DNA from: a virus
Lineage: Duplodnaviria > Heunggongvirae > Uroviricota > Caudoviricetes
Length of the DNA: 7,140 bases
IMG/VR virus record: IMGVR_UViG_2778261667_000001
Direction: 5' to 3' (one strand)
Below are positions 134-6,587 of the stretch, piece by piece. The notes below the pieces were generated by a model. That model did not search any database. It was given only the letters and a program-made list of their open reading frames with translations, and was not told the origin of the DNA. The stretch's first letter is position 1. Each line of letters begins with the position of its first letter. The translations under genes and the position numbers were made by a program.

Positions 134-167
134 CTAACTTTAGATAATTGGCATTATTTAAAGTTAG
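134..167. other. lox-like recombination site: 13-bp inverted arms flanking an 8-bp asymmetric spacer
   Basis: Seen in sequence: CTAACTTTAGATA (134-146), spacer ATTGGCAT (147-154), TATTTAAAGTTAG (155-167). The arms are inverted repeats matching at 12 of 13 positions. The 13+8+13 architecture is that of P1 loxP, and the arm matches the loxP arm ATAACTTCGTATA at 9 of 13 positions. It lies 152 bp upstream of the Cre-like gene, as loxP lies just upstream of cre in P1. Confidence 0.55.
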
Positions 168-175
168 GTTATAAT
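148..175 (+). promoter_or_regulatory. Candidate sigma70 promoter (-35 TTGGCA, 16-bp spacer, -10 TATAAT) overlapping the lox-like site
   Basis: Seen in sequence: TTGGCA at 148-153 (5/6 to TTGACA) and TATAAT at 170-175 (6/6), spaced 16 bp, oriented toward the recombinase gene at 319. The -35 sits inside the lox-like spacer and left edge of the right arm. Confidence 0.45.
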
Positions 176-318
176 CATGTGTAGATGAACAGTGTTGACA
201 TCACTAAAAATACGTGCATCGAATCAAAGGCTTGAATTTTGAAAATTAACTTATAGCTACCCTGTCATTTTTATATTTTTCGCGTAACGTCATCTGTATA
301 TAGAGGTTAAATAGTTTC

Positions 319-1347
319 ATGAGTGAATTAATTATCTCTGGCAGTTCCGGTGGTTTCCTGCGCAACATTGGCAAAGAGTACCAGGAGGCCGCAGAAAACT
401 TTATGCGGTTCATGAATGACCAGGGGGCTTATGCGCCGAATACTCTGCGCGACCTCCGGTTGGTGTTTCACTCCTGGGCGCGATGGTGTCACGCTCGCCA
501 GCTCGCCTGGTTCCCGATCTCACCAGAGATGGCCCGCGAGTATTTTCTTCAACTGCATGATGCCGATCTGGCTTCGACCACCATTGATAAGCACTACGCC
601 ATGCTGAATATGCTGCTTTCGCATTGTGGCCTTCCACCACTTTCGGATGATAAAAGTGTTTCTCTGGCTATGCGGCGCATCCGGCGAGAAGCAGCAACTG
701 AAAAAGGTGAACGAACAGGCCAGGCTATACCGCTGCGGTGGGACGACCTGAAACTGCTCGACGTCCTGTTGTCCAGGTCTGAACGGCTGGTAGATCTGCG
801 CAACCGGGCTTTTCTCTTTGTTGCATACAACACACTGATGCGTATGTCTGAAATCTCGCGAATTCGCGTAGGAGATCTGGATCAAACAGGTGACACTGTC
901 ACGCTACATATTTCACACACGAAGACAATAACGACCGCTGCCGGGCTTGATAAGGTGCTTTCTCGTCGCACTACCGCTGTACTGAATGACTGGCTGGAGG
1001 CTTCCGGGCTTCGTGAACATCCTGACGCGGTGCTGTTCCCGCCGATACACCGTAGCAATAAGGCCAGGATCACGATAACGCCCCTTACTGCACCTGCAAT
1101 GGAGAAAATATTCAGCGATGCCTGGGTGTTGCTGAATAAAAGAGATGCCACGCCGAACAAAGGAAGATACCGGACGTGGACAGGCCATAGTGCTCGTGTC
1201 GGGGCCGCTATCGATATGGCTGAAAAGCAGGTGTCTATGGTGGAGATCATGCAGGAAGGAACCTGGAAGAAACCGGAAACACTTATGCGGTATCTGCGCC
1301 GTGGCGGCGTGTCTGTGGGGGCTAATAGCCGCCTGATGGATTCGTAA
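319..1347 (+). CDS. Cre-family tyrosine site-specific recombinase
   Basis: The 342-aa ORF is nearly the same length as P1 Cre (343 aa) and aligns by eye along its whole length. Shared blocks include SWARWC, WFP..PE, LNML, VSLAMRRIRRE, RNRAFLFVAYNTLMRMSEISRIRVGDL, HTKT, WTGHSARVGAAIDMA, EIMQEGTW and LMRYLRR. Counterparts of Cre catalytic residues R173, K201, H289, R292, W315 and Y324 are all present. GAGG at 303-306 is a possible RBS. Confidence 0.9.
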   Translation: MSELIISGSSGGFLRNIGKEYQEAAENFMRFMNDQGAYAPNTLRDLRLVFHSWARWCHARQLAWFPISPEMAREYFLQLHDADLASTTIDKHYAMLNMLLSHCGLPPLSDDKSVSLAMRRIRREAATEKGERTGQAIPLRWDDLKLLDVLLSRSERLVDLRNRAFLFVAYNTLMRMSEISRIRVGDLDQTGDTVTLHISHTKTITTAAGLDKVLSRRTTAVLNDWLEASGLREHPDAVLFPPIHRSNKARITITPLTAPAMEKIFSDAWVLLNKRDATPNKGRYRTWTGHSARVGAAIDMAEKQVSMVEIMQEGTWKKPETLMRYLRRGGVSVGANSRLMDS

Positions 1348-1408
1348 ATTAAATTTCTAACATATCTTTTTAGATTGATATCTTTGCTGTAAAGTACCCT
1401 CGCCTATT

Positions 1409-1765
1409 TTGGAGGGTGCTTTGCAGAGTCAAATCACGGAATCAAGACGCTTCACGGTGGACGGTTACACCGTAACCTTCGCCGCTGGTGTTAAGAACAG
1501 TCATGCTGTCGTTGTATTCGGCATCATGACCGGGCTTGAGGCCGTCCCTGTATTTACCCTCGAAAAAAACTGGCGAAATCTGGAGGAAGCGGAAAGCTAT
1601 GTCCGGAAAGTAACCATCATTGCCGCCGAAAAACTCCTGGCCCACTATCAGGAAAATTATCGCACTATGGTCGAGAAAATTAATCTCGCTTTCACTCGCC
1701 CCACTACAGGCTTCATCGCCCCGGAGACTAATACAGGTCGCTATCCTGCAAGGGGTCGTCGGTGA
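1409..1765 (+). CDS. Hypothetical protein (about 114-118 aa, start codon uncertain)
   Basis: Intact ORF whose stop overlaps the next gene's GTG start (GTGA at 1762-1765). GGAGG at 1411-1415 sits 5 nt before an in-frame TTG at 1421, so the real start may be TTG 1421 or GTG 1457 rather than TTG 1409. No recognisable family. Confidence 0.5.
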   Translation: MEGALQSQITESRRFTVDGYTVTFAAGVKNSHAVVVFGIMTGLEAVPVFTLEKNWRNLEEAESYVRKVTIIAAEKLLAHYQENYRTMVEKINLAFTRPTTGFIAPETNTGRYPARGRR

Positions 1766-2238
1766 AAAATTATTACCCATCTCTGAATTGTTACCCGTCT
1801 TCGTATCCGGAATTGTCCGGGAAGCTGTTATCTCTTTTGGCTAAATCACCAACTGAATGGTTTAAGCCAGTCGTTATCAATCCACACTTCCTGGATTACG
1901 GATCTGTTCGCACTCGTAACGAACTCAAAAACCTGCTGGCGCATGGATTCATTCGACACCGTGCCGGGAAAGGCTATCAGTTAGCGATTTCGCCAGAAGA
2001 GGCCGTGCGGCTATTCGCATATCGTGACAGCCAGACAAAAGCACGGGTAATAGCTCAAATACTTCATAACGGCAGCACCTATGCCCGCCAGTTTGGCGGC
2101 GACACGTCGCAGTTCTTGCGGGCTGTGCGATCGCTGGAAGAACAAGGAGTTATTGAAAGTTCCTGTCTTCCTGTTCCTACCGTTCCACATATCAAACGTC
2201 GGGTTTACACCTTCACGCAGAGAGCTAAAAAACAATGA
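1762..2238 (+). CDS. Hypothetical protein, possible winged-helix DNA-binding protein
   Basis: 158-aa ORF with a GTG start overlapping the upstream stop and a stop overlapping the downstream ATG (ATGA at 2235-2238). Segments such as ELKNLLAHGFIRHRAGKGYQLAISPEEAVRLF and QFLRAVRSLEEQGVIES look like winged-helix recognition regions; this is inference from composition only. Confidence 0.55.
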   Translation: MKNYYPSLNCYPSSYPELSGKLLSLLAKSPTEWFKPVVINPHFLDYGSVRTRNELKNLLAHGFIRHRAGKGYQLAISPEEAVRLFAYRDSQTKARVIAQILHNGSTYARQFGGDTSQFLRAVRSLEEQGVIESSCLPVPTVPHIKRRVYTFTQRAKKQ

Positions 2239-2729
2239 TTTACGTAAAAGTGAAACGCCTACATCCGGAAGCAAAACTTCCAGCTTATGCCACTGCCGGA
2301 TCGGCGGCGATGGATTTTGAGGCTGTTGAAATAACACCGTGCGTCGATAGCAATGGTGCAATTTCCTCAAGCTGGTGGGTGCATACCGGGCTGGCTATGG
2401 AGATCCCGCCCGGCTGGTGTCTGAAACTCTATCCGCGTTCCGGATTGGGCTGCAAAAAACATACTCGCTTGGCTAACTGCGTAGGAATTATCGACTCCGA
2501 TTATCGCGGTGAAATCATGGCAAAACTGATTACTGATCCAGGCGGTGAAGGCGTTTGCCTCAAGCCGGGGATGGCGGTCATGCAAGGCATTTTTGAGCGT
2601 GTTGAACCGGTATCGCTGGTAGAAGTTGATGAACTCGATGAAACAGAACGAGGTGCTGGTGGCTTTGGTAGCACATCGGAAGGCCGCGTTGAAATCAAGC
2701 GTACACCGCTTCAGTACGCAAAGTTTTAA
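2235..2729 (+). CDS. dut: dUTP diphosphatase (trimeric dUTPase family)
   Basis: Matches conserved dUTPase motifs when compared by eye with E. coli Dut: PAYATAGSAAMDF (motif I), PRSGLG (motif II), GIIDSDYRGE (motif III) and RGAGGFGSTS (motif V). Motif V is followed by a short extra tail (EGRVEIKRTPLQYAKF). Start overlaps the upstream stop. Confidence 0.88.
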   Translation: MIYVKVKRLHPEAKLPAYATAGSAAMDFEAVEITPCVDSNGAISSSWWVHTGLAMEIPPGWCLKLYPRSGLGCKKHTRLANCVGIIDSDYRGEIMAKLITDPGGEGVCLKPGMAVMQGIFERVEPVSLVEVDELDETERGAGGFGSTSEGRVEIKRTPLQYAKF

Positions 2730-2743
2730 GTAGAGGAAGGATT

Positions 2744-3406
2744 ATGGCCAGCACTTTTCAGGTGTTCCCCAAATACAAATGCCACAGCATCATTCGGGCA
2801 TCGAAAATCAAAGATATTGTTATTGTCGGCAAAGCTTATGCGCCCATTTTTGGCAGCATCGAAGTCGTGGAGCCAAAAGGAATGACGCTTCGTGTTGATG
2901 GTGTGTTCTTGGAAAAGTTCCGACCGCAAATAGGAGGATATCTCGTCACTGCTGAAAATGGTTATCTGGTCTATGTGCCAGAGAAAGCATTTGAAAAATG
3001 CTATAGCCGGGTTAACGACGCCTCCGAAAATGGGGTATCGCTCAGCATTGAAGGTCACAATGGGGTGACATTCATTACAGCCAGGGACGTAACTATTTCT
3101 GCTGGCGGTATCGCTACTCTACAAGAAGAAATCGACCTTGAAGCAGCCGACTTTTCTGACGCGCTGATGTGGATGAAGGATGGCAAGAAAGTTGCTCGAC
3201 GCGGGTGGAACGGCGAAGACCAATTCTGCTGGCTGGTTCCTGAAGGACAGTACCCGGCACGAATGGAAGCCATTAAGGGATATTTCCCCGGCGACCTCGT
3301 TCCGTATGGTGCTTATTTCGCCTTAAAAAATGCACAAGGTGTAGTTGTTCCGTGGGTGCCTTCAGTTGGCGACCTGCTGGCCTGTGACTGGTTTGTTGTG
3401 GAGTGA
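2744..3406 (+). CDS. Two-domain hypothetical protein: unknown N-terminal domain fused to a C-terminal DUF2829-like (Tad2-type) domain
   Basis: 220-aa ORF with a good RBS (GGAAGGA at 2732-2738, ATG at 2744). The C-terminal ~80 aa (about 3161..3403) read ALMWMKDGKKVARRGWNG...PYGAYFALKNAQGVVVPWVPSVGDLLACDWFVVE. This matches the pattern I recall for small phage DUF2829 proteins (GKKV.R.GW near the start, D.LA.DW at the end). The N-terminal ~140 aa is unrecognised. Confidence 0.75.
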   Translation: MASTFQVFPKYKCHSIIRASKIKDIVIVGKAYAPIFGSIEVVEPKGMTLRVDGVFLEKFRPQIGGYLVTAENGYLVYVPEKAFEKCYSRVNDASENGVSLSIEGHNGVTFITARDVTISAGGIATLQEEIDLEAADFSDALMWMKDGKKVARRGWNGEDQFCWLVPEGQYPARMEAIKGYFPGDLVPYGAYFALKNAQGVVVPWVPSVGDLLACDWFVVE

Positions 3407-3412
3407 TTTAAC

Positions 3413-4219
3413 GTGGAAAATACCAAGAACATTCAATATCGCCTGCGTAACGGCCTGCTGGTGGATGTTAACGCTGACATGTCTCTGCCGCTCGACACGA
3501 TTGAACGCACTATCATGGCGTATCTTGGCTTTAATGAAGAGCTGAATGAAGAGCATGGCGTAGCCATATGGAGCGATGCAGACAACGGCGCTCGCCGTTA
3601 TATCACTGCCAGAGGCAAAGACTACTCTCTGGAAGAACTGTTTACCCTTGCGCAGTCTTTCGAATGTGTAGCATTGGATCTGTTTAATGATCCTGCTATA
3701 GCGCAACGACTTATCCGCGAGCTTGGGCTGTCCGTTACCCCAATCATCTTTAGAAATGGCAGCTTGACTGGCACATGGCGCGTAGAACGCATCTCAAACT
3801 ACCTTCCATATAACCGACAGTTAAATGGAGTAATCTCCGGCGTTAATCAGCCCGTAGCGTGTGAAAATGTAAACCTAGTTGTCGCTGTTTTGGCAACCGC
3901 ATGTCGCGTTATTGGTTTGACTAAACAGGCATTTATTCATTTCCCAAATGGTGCAGATGGTAGCGCAGAGATTATCGCGTGTGATTTCGAATTTACCTGG
4001 ATGCTACGAGAATATCTGGACAAAACAGTATTCCGTGCCGAAGAACTGGATATGTATATCACGTCAACGATTCCTGATGATGTGCGAGCTGAAGCAATCG
4101 CTACAGCCAGGGCTAAATGCCGTGCGGCGATTGCAGAACAGGCCAAAGAAGAACAGTCCGATGAAGTCGCGGCAGATGTGGAAGCAGAGGTAGCGGAGGA
4201 TGCTGATGCTGACGCCTAA
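3413..4219 (+). CDS. Hypothetical protein with a strongly acidic C-terminal tail
   Basis: 268-aa ORF. The first start codon in frame is GTG at 3413, two codons after the upstream TGA and in the same frame, with no obvious SD, so the start is uncertain. The last ~30 aa (EQAKEEQSDEVAADVEAEVAEDADADA) are very acidic. The 3' end overlaps the next gene by 20 nt. Confidence 0.65.
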   Translation: MENTKNIQYRLRNGLLVDVNADMSLPLDTIERTIMAYLGFNEELNEEHGVAIWSDADNGARRYITARGKDYSLEELFTLAQSFECVALDLFNDPAIAQRLIRELGLSVTPIIFRNGSLTGTWRVERISNYLPYNRQLNGVISGVNQPVACENVNLVVAVLATACRVIGLTKQAFIHFPNGADGSAEIIACDFEFTWMLREYLDKTVFRAEELDMYITSTIPDDVRAEAIATARAKCRAAIAEQAKEEQSDEVAADVEAEVAEDADADA

Positions 4220-5306
4220 AAACATCACCGAATTACCAGAGTGGAGAGAGCTGGTAAGCAAATATAGCCATGACTGGGCATTAGCAGCAGAAGAGTTGAT
4301 GGGTGTTAAGTTAACCCACCAGCAAAAGCTAATTGTTGAGGCGATTCAACAAAAAGGTTCAGCAGTCAGCGTCACCACTCCTGAAGGGATAGGCCAAAAG
4401 ACGGTTATGGCTATAATTAGTATTCTTTATACAATCCTGATGCCTGAGTCTAAAACGGTCATTGTTTCCCCAAAGTTCTATAATTGTCGCAGGCAAGTTA
4501 TCCAATACATAAGTACGTATTGGGATAGAGTCAGTAACAGAATCCCATTGCTGGGAGAATATTTTAAAGTCGACGGAAACGGCATCACTCATCGTTACCG
4601 GGAATATTGGGGCTGCGAAATTAAGCCATATCACCGAAATTATGAGGAAGGTTTCGGTGGATATTATGCTGAACATCTTTTAATCATTGTTACGGAGGCG
4701 GCTCTTGCTGGCGATCGGCTATTCAGCATGTTAAGAGCATCGTTAGTAAGTGACGATTCACGTATACTTTTAATGTCCGCTCCTTCAGAGGAGGAGCATG
4801 GACACTTTTACGATTCCCATCATGGTCGTGCAAAATCTGAAGAAAATCCATGTGGTATTTATACAGCCATCAAGTTGAACGCAGAAGATACCCCCATTAT
4901 TTCTCAAGGTTATCTTGATAACATTGCAGAAATATATGGTGGTAAAAATAGCGATTACTACCGTCGTATGGTTCTTGGTGAGTTCCCTGGTATTCGGGAG
5001 GCTGTTCTTGAATCAGATATGCCGAAAACAATGCGCTTTACGATGCATGATGGTAGTGAATGGACAATGCCATTACTAGTGATAGCCCGGCATCATGCAC
5101 AGCACCACGCCAAAAAACATGGCGTTACAACATTAGAGTGGTTGAAATCGCACACCATTCCACTCTTCACTGCAGATCACAATGCTATCGTTGAGTGGGC
5201 AAAAACAATTCCGTGGGAGAATGTCGCTGAATACGCCAACATGCTAAAACCGCCGAAAGACAGGCAAGAAATTAGCTGGCTGACAGCAGAAAAAATCATC
5301 GAGTGA
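4200..5306 (+). CDS. Terminase-large-subunit-like ASCE ATPase domain protein (no nuclease domain, divergent Walker motifs)
   Basis: 368-aa ORF; ATG 4206 is the more likely start because GGAGG at 4195-4199 sits 6 nt upstream of it. Motif order and spacing fit a terminase ATPase domain: Walker A-like PEGIGQKT (aa 61-68), Walker B-like LLIIVTE (aa 160-166), coupling motif-like LLMSAPS (aa 190-196), and YYRRMVLGEFPG near aa 253-264. The Gly before the Walker A Lys is Q and the Walker B Asp is T. The remaining ~100 aa are too short for an RNaseH-like nuclease domain and show no acidic triad. Confidence 0.7.
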   Translation: MLMLTPKNITELPEWRELVSKYSHDWALAAEELMGVKLTHQQKLIVEAIQQKGSAVSVTTPEGIGQKTVMAIISILYTILMPESKTVIVSPKFYNCRRQVIQYISTYWDRVSNRIPLLGEYFKVDGNGITHRYREYWGCEIKPYHRNYEEGFGGYYAEHLLIIVTEAALAGDRLFSMLRASLVSDDSRILLMSAPSEEEHGHFYDSHHGRAKSEENPCGIYTAIKLNAEDTPIISQGYLDNIAEIYGGKNSDYYRRMVLGEFPGIREAVLESDMPKTMRFTMHDGSEWTMPLLVIARHHAQHHAKKHGVTTLEWLKSHTIPLFTADHNAIVEWAKTIPWENVAEYANMLKPPKDRQEISWLTAEKIIE

Positions 5307-5310
5307 TAGT

Positions 5311-5342
5311 AAAAAGCCCGCCTGGTTGAGCGGGCTTTTTTA
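5311..5342. terminator. Bidirectional Rho-independent terminator
   Basis: Seen in sequence: AAAAA-GCCCGC-ctggttga-GCGGGC-TTTTTT. A 6-bp GC stem with an 8-nt loop is flanked by an A-tract and a T-tract, 5 nt after the stop of the 4200..5306 gene, between convergent blocks. Confidence 0.75.
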
Positions 5343-5498: not shown

Positions 5499-5765
5499 TT
5501 ATGGTTCGCATTTCCATATGGTGTTCTGAACGCCAGTACCGGGCGCGAGATGGGGGTTAGCGTTCGCGCTATGCTGATATACGGCTTTAGACTTTCCATA
5601 TTGCTGACAGGCTTTATCTGCGGTTTTTTGCAGGCTATCCAGCCCATACCAGCCATCTGACTGGATGCTTACCTTTTCACCGTCATTGTATTGCACCATC
5701 GCACACCCAGATATAGCCAGTATCGCGCCGACAATAACGCTATTCCATAAAACTCTATGCAACAT
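5499..5765 (-). CDS. Small putative lipoprotein (about 88 aa)
   Basis: Taking ATG at 5765 as start, the N-terminus MLHRVLWNSVIVGAILAISGCA has a basic n-region, a hydrophobic core and a lipobox-like ISGC. The mature part would be ~65 aa with two more Cys. The ORF track start at 5771 is a TTG two codons upstream. Confidence 0.5.
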   Translation of the reverse strand: MLHRVLWNSVIVGAILAISGCAMVQYNDGEKVSIQSDGWYGLDSLQKTADKACQQYGKSKAVYQHSANANPHLAPGTGVQNTIWKCEP

Positions 5766-5769
5766 ATAC

Positions 5770-5800
5770 AAAAATCCCCTCTGTGAATTGAGGGGATTTT
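5770..5800 (-). terminator. Hairpin with T-tract, candidate intrinsic terminator or attenuator for minus-strand transcription
   Basis: Seen in sequence, plus strand: AAAATCCCCTC-tgtgaatt-GAGGGGATTTT (11-bp perfect stem with a 7-bp GC-rich core). On the minus strand the stem is followed by TTTTTGTAT and then the ATG at 5765, so the 3' half (GAGGGGA) could also serve as that gene's SD. Confidence 0.5.
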
Positions 5801-5834: not shown

Positions 5835-6587
5835 TTAATCAGCCTCCAGTGGCAATAACGCCTTAGCCATTTCATGAATCAGCATGGCATCAATGACGCC
5901 TAGCGTATGGCCCGGCTTAATCTTTAATGCGGCCTCAAGATAGCCTCTTTCCAGAGTGGTTTTTACGCTTTTCCTGGGCGCTTGTTGGGAACTATCCGGA
6001 AGATCCGGATGGTTGCCAGCCTCATAAGCTACCCGCAACCAGTGCATGAATGTTTCCGCAGACACACAACCGCAGTCCACATCAATTTCCCCGCGTTGCT
6101 GTTCCAGCCATTGCTCAAAATCTAACTTGTAAGCCTTACTTTCAAGTTCATCACCATTGGACTTGACTTTCTGAGACGCTATGCGAGCTGCTTCATACTG
6201 TTCACGAGTGACAACCGATGTAAACGCACTGCGATCAAGGTCACTGATATCGCAAATAATGCCATCCAAGGAATAATTCTTTGATGATTGGTAATTTTTA
6301 TGGCGCGTACCAAAAAGAACCATAGCGCGACTACTACCTGGCATCGTAATGGATAGATGGCAAAAATCTTTTCCATCAGGCCATCCACGCCCCTTAGATA
6401 ATTCCTTCACTAACAAGTCAATCAGTGTCATAGCGTTACCATCCTTGCAAGGCGCTAAAGCTATTTTGGCAAGCTCCAATACGTCATCTGCTGTGTATCC
6501 AGCACCGTGACCATACATTTCGATACGGGAAATAATATCTGAAATACGCTCTTTAGTGATTCTTGTCATAGTTTTATTTCCTTGCAT
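5835..6587 (-). CDS. Hypothetical protein (244-250 aa)
   Basis: Long intact minus-strand ORF. Both ATG 6587 (AAGG 5-6 nt upstream) and ATG 6569 (AAGGAAA upstream, overlapping the upstream stop as ATGA) are plausible starts. No recognisable family. Confidence 0.7.
   Translation of the reverse strand: MQGNKTMTRITKERISDIISRIEMYGHGAGYTADDVLELAKIALAPCKDGNAMTLIDLLVKELSKGRGWPDGKDFCHLSITMPGSSRAMVLFGTRHKNYQSSKNYSLDGIICDISDLDRSAFTSVVTREQYEAARIASQKVKSNGDELESKAYKLDFEQWLEQQRGEIDVDCGCVSAETFMHWLRVAYEAGNHPDLPDSSQQAPRKSVKTTLERGYLEAALKIKPGHTLGVIDAMLIHEMAKALLPLEAD

Follow-up and report, generated by a model that had tools for sequence, protein, structure and literature searches.

A catalytically degenerate paralogue of the PacB ATPase domain in D6- and P1-type phage-plasmids and its possible role as a decoy

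What could a phage gain from a second copy of its terminase ATPase domain in which the catalytic residues have been replaced? Among the proteins of tailed phages, large terminases are the most conserved, and they are a main target of bacterial pattern-recognition immunity. The question is raised by a 7,140-nt stretch of DNA from a member of the Caudoviricetes (IMG/VR record IMGVR_UViG_2778261667_000001; called the window below), in which one gene, here termed the pseudo-terminase gene, joins a relative of the ATPase domain of PacB, the large terminase (pacase B) of phages P1 and D6, to an unrelated C-terminal domain. A 2026 study left the role of extra terminase-ATPase-like proteins (T4 vs.8, Ksap1/2) as an explicit open question (PMC13601566), and the pseudo-terminase appears to offer a natural example of one from which catalysis was lost although selection still maintains it. 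Compared to the resident terminase it diversifies far more rapidly, anti-defence genes accompany it in a known hot spot of P1-type phage-plasmids, and because its hosts (E. coli with P1 or D6) are open to genetic manipulation, the question can be tested directly. The protein is not categorically new; it is a clean, tractable case on an open question.

The ATPase-like half and its motifs

The ATPase-like half was compared to PacB, to profile collections and to known structures. In BLASTP, residues 13-270 of the pseudo-terminase aligned to residues 9-266 of P1 PacB with 36% identity (E 1e-55), and a D6-like PacB was matched with 35% identity (E 1e-56). The protein also matched phrog_2 (terminase large subunit; E 3e-10) and, over nearly its full length, phrog_5902 (residues 7-367 against positions 3-358 of a 359-position profile; E 1.5e-132), which already catalogues the family without a function. 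An AlphaFold2 (AF2) model had a predicted local distance difference test score (pLDDT) of 83, and its 31 best PDB matches in Foldseek were all ATPase domains of large terminases (TerL) or full TerLs, among them those of P74-26, Sf6, T4, D6E and HK97 (E 6e-9 to 1e-5; the best matches had template modelling (TM) scores of 0.66-0.69 on the target). A search of the PDB by sequence using the family profile gave no match, and NCBIfam gave no significant match. Judged from the sequence profiles and the predicted model, the homology to large-terminase ATPase domains is solid and far beyond chance. The initial annotation had claimed the motif order and spacing of such a domain, and the PacB alignment, the phrog_2 match and the fit of the model to TerL ATPase structures all agree with it.

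The motifs were then read from an alignment of PacB of the P1 and D6 types, two distant full terminases (P0010 and P0011, with canonical GTGKT/GVGKT and IIVDEA/YIVDEA) and eight paralogues. The string GIGQKT aligned without gaps to PacB GHGTGKS, which places Q66 at the position of the Walker A Lys and K67 at the Ser/Thr position. This string had been pointed out from the start as a degenerate Walker A motif, correctly so, with its Gln taken to stand before a retained Lys; this second part did not hold, as the Gln itself occupies the Lys position. The Lys column is K in PacB, P0010 and P0011 and reads Q, Q, H, R, T, S, Y and E in the eight paralogues, while the column after it reads K, K, K, P, T, S, I and T. 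In IIVTE, the remnant of Walker B, T165 aligned with the PacB Asp as had been proposed; across the paralogues the Asp column reads T, A, M, V, L, I, L and I, so that Asp is never present, and the Glu column reads E, E, D, D, N, N, D and N. Both substitutions highlighted initially, Q and T, therefore fall in columns that vary across the paralogues, and no canonical GK[ST] or DE was found elsewhere in the protein. In the AF2 model, the Walker A remnant lies in a strand (55-59), loop and helix (66-80) arrangement, and the Walker B remnant corresponds to strand 159-165.

Other segments were retained. The paralogues and PacB have in common an N-terminal PxWxxL...Y..DW segment, the THQQ adenine motif, two P-loop glycines and the SxP motif. 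The most conserved segment, residues 183-227, which covers the SxP motif and the GxFYDSHH..NPxG lid region, showed 54-60% identity to PacB compared to 36% overall. Because the catalytic columns vary freely across the eight paralogues while these segments stay conserved, the family bears the signature of a pseudoenzyme, and it is very probably a pseudo-ATPase that keeps the fold and some surfaces. We infer from the sequence that the pseudo-terminase cannot hydrolyse ATP or cut DNA. The earlier view of a non-working terminase is thus in line with the replacement of the catalytic Lys and Asp at positions that are not conserved among the paralogues.

An alternative explanation is that the protein is a working ATPase with unusual motifs, in which K67 and T68 act as a shifted Walker A and E166 is catalytic. 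The closest alleles indeed keep GIGQKT or GIGHKS together with [TA]E, and the adenine-contact Gln of THQQ and the two P-loop glycines are invariant. However, other paralogues have P, T, S or I in place of K67, the Asp of Walker B is absent throughout, E166 changes to D or N, and an Arg aligned with PacB CRPG/YRLG is lost in three paralogues. No catalytic residue is therefore held by selection across the family, which makes a working ATPase very improbable.

Of five features of a large terminase, the ATPase fold was found, and the Walker A Lys, the Walker B DE, the nuclease and an adjacent PacA were not; the gene should therefore not be filed as a large terminase. Public records label members of the family either 'hypothetical protein' or, wrongly, 'terminase large subunit', and the analysis corrects such database entries for pseudo-terminase genes. 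A truncated fragment of a full terminase was also considered and rejected, as the relatives share an architecture of ~365 amino acids (aa), except for a 262-aa ATPase-only form; PacB, at 35% identity, is the closest full terminase, and none of the close relatives among the matches listed is a terminase of full length.

Selection, distribution and modular build of the family

The ratio of nonsynonymous to synonymous substitution rates (dN/dS), estimated between alleles by the Nei-Gojobori method with pairs at dS>1 included, was 0.27-0.43 in the ATPase-like half; the C-terminal domain gave 0.08-0.26. In clusters of 122, 392 and 46 members, drawn from E. coli, Salmonella, Klebsiella and Citrobacter, protein length stayed at 362-368 aa, and a further cluster of 12 members was also length-conserved. 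Identity to the paralogues P0001-P0008, all of 362-368 aa, ranged from 38 to 98% and was 49% for the copy of a P1-like element. The pseudo-terminase is kept by purifying selection. The initial annotation had left room for a decaying remnant, that is, a functionless product of a duplicated pacB. Such decay would be consistent with the lost catalytic residues and nuclease domain, with the absence of the gene from many relatives (D6 and P1 included) and with a G+C content of 0.42-0.43 compared to ~0.50 for the genes upstream. It is contradicted by dN/dS values that stay far under 1 for either half, pairs with dS>1 included, by an intact frame of constant length across elements of the four genera, by a good ribosome-binding site and a dedicated terminator, and by the occurrence of the domain fusion in both orders, which together leave this explanation next to no probability.

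The gene had also been described as an orphan without morphogenesis genes, possibly encoding a satellite-style interference factor. Phage D6 matched window positions 151-4176 with 94% identity, and ~90-kb plasmids of E. coli, Salmonella and Shigella aligned across nearly the entire window, the best of them being NZ_CP159120.1 (99.7% over the pseudo-terminase gene). Near-identical plasmids carry pacA, pacB and the gene of the c1 repressor directly upstream of the recombinase gene at the window's left end, which puts true pacA and pacB genes ~5 kb from the pseudo-terminase gene. By these matches, the host element is a complete D6/P1-type (D6-like) phage-plasmid with its own pacA and pacB, and neither 'orphan' nor 'satellite-style' applies. 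Morphogenesis genes are indeed missing from the 7.1-kb window but not from the element, and the impression arose because only the window had been seen, with pacAB sitting upstream of it. To our knowledge, pacAB are not adjacent to portal or capsid genes in P1-type genomes.

A full-length paralogue was found in 164 of 744 plasmid records with a PacB-like match (~22%), and sampled carriers also held a PacB match. On this distribution, the pseudo-terminase is an accessory, optional cassette of D6-like and P1-like phage-plasmids; among the matches listed, the family is confined to elements with PacB-type terminases. D6, which has no pseudo-terminase gene, runs from the isaA stop codon directly into the same kind of terminator, which places the gene precisely at the junction of isaA and operon terminator. 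P1-like elements carry the 49%-identical copy after ssb and isaA, and a Citrobacter-type relative carries a 38%-identical homologue after a DnaB-like helicase gene. P1 itself has IS1 and the unrelated isaB in the slot after isaA, and this isaA-IS1-isaB slot is the published variable region RD-2 or region 2 (PMC6906374, PMC9603915). P1 IsaB was examined as an IS1-disrupted remnant of the pseudo-terminase gene and rejected, as there was no similarity. Many E. coli plasmids matched only the last 37-43 bp of the gene (window 5265-5306) with 97-98% identity, suggesting repeated gene deletion or recombination at the 3' end or terminator.

The two halves of the protein differ in their divergence. Between two D6-like plasmids, the PacB ATPase half was 92% identical, Dre 94% and the C-terminal domain of the pseudo-terminase 95%, compared to 53% for its ATPase-like half. 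The corresponding dS values were 1.46 for the ATPase-like half and 0.21 for the C-terminal domain, and this sevenfold gap indicates that the alleles are mosaics.

Similarity to PacB stops at residue ~270, and the ~100 aa that follow are a member of an unrelated domain family. No match to a nuclease-like fold was obtained for this part; the RNaseH-like nuclease is thus absent, as had been claimed, and a separate domain of ~100 aa stands in its place. A profile of residues 265-368 retrieved 1152 representative proteins (counted at 50% clustering) at E<=1e-3 from 1.84 billion, 448 of them at E<=1e-10. The C-terminus of phrog_17928 matched residues 268-354 (E 1.9e-13), and a local hidden Markov model built from 71 members matched the window protein with an E-value of 2e-26. 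Conserved columns read MPDGSxW..P...IA..[RH]A and DWA..(N)M.W.DV. The domain was modelled with a pLDDT of 90 as mostly helical. It has no Pfam family, DUF5076 (PF16826; PDB 3ic3) being a sub-threshold lead below the 25-bit gathering threshold; in BFVD the model found only uncharacterised viral relatives, and no fold relative was detectable. We therefore flag a large domain family without a Pfam entry or fold relative. An assignment to the Lockin sponges was considered unlikely, since Lockin is described as mostly beta-sheet. The His-rich stretch reported after the ATPase domain was confirmed (nt 5085-5123) and forms the first helix of the C-terminal domain (AF2 helix 292-307). Since the wider family reads IAxxRAxYYA there, with only the Ala positions nearly invariant, the histidines are, on this alignment, lineage-specific and not a conserved metal site.

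The domain is mostly free-standing, as a protein of ~100 aa among small early genes. It also ends DUF1351 coiled-coil proteins (phrog_17928) such as ORF36 of Xanthomonas phage CP2, which lies directly upstream of Erf, exonuclease, endonuclease and SSB genes, while one copy is fused to a Lar-like domain and others to modules without assigned role. The reversed order, domain first and pseudo-ATPase second, was found in an E. coli-type element on an NCBI assembly contig (L019, 6001-8384), where the gene is truncated by a 548-aa transposase-like open reading frame (ORF) on the opposite strand; a gene for a Ref-like RecA-dependent nuclease and an AbiH gene lie nearby. The Citrobacter 262-aa form (P0009) is the ATPase-like half alone. 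A cluster at >=90% identity around the Citrobacter-type fusion (cluster 3) contained 362-365-aa fusions together with 90-104-aa Salmonella plasmid proteins, which are apparently free-standing copies of the C-terminal domain. Free-standing domain genes had no pseudo-ATPase gene within 5 kb, and P0009 likewise lacked a domain gene within 8 kb. Taken from these architectures, the two halves are independent modules that were joined more than once, which argues that they work together.

These architectures also bear on a replication or recombination accessory, in which the C-terminal domain would be the working part and the dead ATPase an optional DNA- or protein-binding extension. Such a role would fit an autonomous and widespread domain, the position of the CP2 gene beside the genes named above, a free-standing copy near RecT and YqaJ, the fusion that follows a DnaB-like helicase in one lineage, the Cronobacter phage JK004, in which a free domain lies two genes downstream of a matching 452-aa gene, the P1-like copy after ssb, and the mixture of fusions and apparent free domains in cluster 3. 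However, phage early regions mix replication, host-takeover and anti-defence genes, which weakens adjacency as an argument. In other cases the free-standing copy is surrounded by small anonymous genes, a Lar-like restriction-alleviation domain is joined to one copy, and the domain has no detectable fold relative. We consider a replication accessory quite improbable.

Candidate roles: decoy of terminase sensors or modulator of packaging

To place the pseudo-terminase among known systems, we compared it first to PacB. The ATPase halves are homologous and the same phage-plasmid carries both genes; unlike PacB (494-502 aa), the pseudo-terminase (366 aa) has no Walker A Lys, Walker B Asp, RNase H-like nuclease or adjacent pacA, and it lies outside the packaging region in a minority of elements. 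Packaging interference by satellites involves SaPI Ppi, PICI Rpp and the PLE inhibitors, which act from satellites and target the small terminase or are not known to be related to TerL in sequence. The pseudo-terminase would resemble them in concept, as a small accessory protein acting on a terminase system by binding, and differs from them, by description, in being encoded by a full phage-plasmid and in being a paralogue of TerL. T4 vs.8, Ksap1 and Ksap2 are nearer in kind, each being a second, nuclease-less terminase-ATPase-like protein beside the true terminase in one phage lineage. By the published description of vs.8 (PMC13601566), the pseudo-terminase differs in having lost the Walker A and B motifs that vs.8 keeps; its origin moreover lies in PacB rather than in T4 gp17, and it has an additional domain at its C-terminus. 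A tblastn search with the target (E<=1e-5) gave 60 phage records with no T4-like genus among the matches listed (40 of 60), and a T4 match to the pseudo-terminase is unlikely. By analogy, the pseudo-terminase would functionally belong with the extra terminase-ATPase-like phage proteins, with T4 vs.8 as the nearest precedent.

If the protein neither hydrolyses ATP nor cuts DNA, it probably acts stoichiometrically, by binding, in structural imitation of the ATPase domain of PacB, and not by packaging DNA. Such a mimic would occupy a partner that normally binds PacB. This partner is probably not the resident packaging machinery, because between the two D6-like plasmids the ATPase half of PacB is 92% identical and that of the pseudo-terminase 53%. 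The gene lies outside the late-gene region, at the end of a dre-led row in the window and after ssb and isaA in the P1-like relative. Two genes upstream in the window, residues 136-219 of a 220-aa protein form a Tad2-like domain (Thoeris anti-defence 2, DUF2829; E 2.7e-22). In the Citrobacter-type element (L004), a Sequestin-family gene (3869-4261) and a Tad2-like gene (16407-17098) lie within 8 kb of the homologue, and the P1-like copy faces the hxr-ddrB-ddrA-darA operon. Placement, neighbours and allele diversity point to conflict functions, not to a conserved resident packaging machine, and we favour a conflict role over routine packaging.

Which sensors could be concerned is suggested by published work: Avs1-3 and Upx sense terminase, and EcAvs2 senses its ATPase domain through an interface sealed by terminase-bound ATP (PMC13601566). 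The non-terminase, terminase-ATPase-like proteins T4 vs.8, Ksap1 and Ksap2 have a predicted fit to the EcAvs2 pocket and activate EcAvs2, and an anti-defence role has been suggested for them (PMC13601566). The reading that we favour, possible rather than probable, is that the pseudo-terminase is a decoy for host immune sensors of the terminase ATPase fold, such as Avs1-3 and Upx. Made before PacB accumulates, it would bind in the sensor pocket but offer neither the nuclease surface nor the ATP-loaded active site on which activation relies, and the conserved C-terminal domain would supply a second, constant function or contact. The more specific version, in which Avs1-3 or Upx are blocked without activation and the hypervariable mimic half reflects an arms race with these sensors, is unlikely. 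If true, a decoy would mark the first case of an anti-defence protein that arose from the very protein sensed by the defence, and it would give a function to the terminase-ATPase-like 'non-terminase' class such as T4 vs.8.

Several points weigh against a decoy. A sensor-binding decoy could equally trigger the sensor, as vs.8 does. The pseudo-terminase, its C-terminal domain and the isaA-like partner encoded upstream gave no match in PADLOC (E<=0.1), whose models are for defence and not for anti-defence. K67 and E166 are retained in the closest alleles, and this sub-clade may still bind nucleotide to a residual degree. The neighbourhood is weak evidence, as ssb, dnaB-like, dam and rdgC genes also adjoin members of the family. 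Finally, the well-conserved SxP and lid segments may mark a PacB-specific partner (PacA or portal), and the restriction of the family to elements with PacB-type terminases, among the matches listed, would also fit a role in packaging.

The last two points lead to a packaging modulator, in which the dead PacB paralogue would retain the contact surfaces of PacB and form non-productive complexes with PacA, PacB or portal. It could serve the resident phage, as a safety catch that keeps the plasmid prophage from being cleaved at pac too early or as a timing device, or else be a dominant-negative excluder of superinfecting P1-family phages. The conservation relative to PacB, highest at residues 183-227 and present also in the N-terminal PxW..L...Y..DW segment, would be expected of such a role. 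The P1 annotation moreover has pacA and pacB readable from the early C1-controlled promoter Plpa, before the late promoter, so that an early inhibitor would make sense, and the pseudo-terminase gene has an early-type placement after ssb and isaA in the P1-like relative. However, with the gene in ~22% of related plasmids it is not needed for packaging control, and the divergence of the ATPase-like half beside a well-conserved resident PacB is hard to square with binding to the resident machinery. The upstream isaA-like partner is not a PacA or TerS relative, and no pac-like TGATCR cluster was found in or near the gene, the window having 3 such sites compared to 8.6 expected. Packaging modulation is the main alternative, though somewhat unlikely; if true, it would be a new route for phage-plasmids to control or exclude packaging and would bear on P1-mediated transduction of resistance genes.

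The gene, its operon and the rest of the window

The features of the window are collected in Table 1. The ORF was claimed to be intact and directly followed by a strong terminator, and both are present. It encodes 368 aa from ATG 4200; however, the closest alleles begin with MLTPK, which corresponds to ATG 4206, and GGAGG sits 6 nt upstream of it, so that ATG 4206 is probably the true start and the product has 366 aa. This ribosome-binding site falls within the 3' end of the isaA-like gene, which overlaps the pseudo-terminase start by 14-20 nt, suggesting translational coupling of the two genes. With an A-run on one side and a T-run on the other, the terminator would permit action in both directions.

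Table 1 Features of the 7,140-nt window, with the basis of each assignment
Feature	Position	Strand	Basis
Dre-like recombinase (tyrosine recombinase)	319-1347	+	Pfam/PHROG matches, D6 annotation
Protein without assigned role	1409-1765	+	ORF list
Second protein without assigned role	1762-2238	+	ORF list
dUTPase	2235-2729	+	Pfam/PHROG matches, D6 annotation
Tad2-like/DUF2829 protein, 220 aa	2744-3406	+	Pfam/PHROG matches
isaA-like gene, 268 aa	3413-4219	+	phrog_2326, E 2.5e-134
GGAGG ribosome-binding site	4195-4199	+	6 nt before ATG 4206; read from sequence
Pseudo-terminase gene (PacB ATPase-domain paralogue and C-terminal domain)	4200-5306	+	ORF list, phrog_5902, PacB similarity, allele starts
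Predicted terminase-type ATPase-fold domain, catalytically degenerate, residues ~3-264	4206-4991	+	PacB alignment, Foldseek
Walker A remnant G63-I-G-Q-K-T68	4386-4403	+	Alignments; Q66 at PacB Walker Lys position
Walker B remnant I162-I-V-T-E166	4683-4697	+	Alignments; T165 at PacB Walker B Asp position
C-terminal domain, residues ~265-368, large unnamed phage family	4992-5303	+	Profile matches
His-rich helix ARHHAQHHAKKHG, A296-RHHAQHHAKKH-G308	5085-5123	+	First helix of C-terminal domain; AF2 helix 292-307
Intrinsic terminator AAAAAGCCCGC-CTGGTTGA-GCGGGCTTTTTT	5311-5341	.	Closes + strand operon

The isaA-like protein was 94% identical to D6 orf113, annotated as 'similar to P1 isaA', and 48% identical to the product of the gene preceding the P1-like paralogue. 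It has a long acidic C-terminal tail (…EEQSDEVAADVEAEVAEDADADA), encoded where the gene overlaps the pseudo-terminase start, and the tail is shorter in D6, which lacks the pseudo-terminase. IsaA is conserved across the P1 and D6 types and has no Pfam family, and a search by sequence gave no PDB relative of the isaA-like protein. Its candidacy as a PacA/TerS paralogue, which would have made a second 'pacase' pair, was rejected (BLASTP E 8.2; hhalign probability 0.1%).

Upstream of it, the N-terminal extension of ~130 aa of the Tad2-like protein corresponds to phrog_11049. The Tad2-like gene and the start of isaA recur with ~87% nucleotide identity in the P1-like phages SJ46, RCS47 and Ro157c2YLVW, and the pair therefore moves between D6-type and P1-type backbones. 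The Citrobacter-type homologue also has a HigB toxin gene with a helix-turn-helix partner nearby, and the Sequestin family found there consists of sponges acting against Thoeris.

From the recombinase gene to the pseudo-terminase gene (319-5306), the + strand genes form a tightly packed row, closed by the terminator. The sole + strand promoter-like site upstream of the row is TTGGCA-16-TATAAT at 148-175, a strong one. It is overlapped by a 32-bp palindromic site, TAACTTTAGATAATTGGCATTATTTAAAGTTA, at 135-166, which matches the rox site of Dre with one mismatch; the D6 annotation has a rox half-site at the matching position. Binding of the Dre-like recombinase there could affect transcription of the entire row. 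In P1, ssb-isaA is an early C1-controlled unit behind the C1 operator Ossb. The P1 C1 operator (ATTGCTCTAATAAATTT, <=3 mismatches) was not found in the window; the operator of the D6 type may differ. The window also contained no Rfam family.

Downstream of the terminator, two ORFs lie on the minus strand. The first (5499-5771, 90 aa) has a lipoprotein-type signal (…LAISGC…) and no Pfam match, and is boxed by terminator 5311-5341 and a minus-strand terminator-like hairpin at 5800-5771. In related plasmids, its place is taken by humD, hot or phd-doc, which marks another variable slot, possibly with a surface-exclusion lipoprotein in the present case. The second (5835-6587, 250 aa) matched seven different PHROGs, each across a short separate stretch, and looks like a mosaic of small phage modules.

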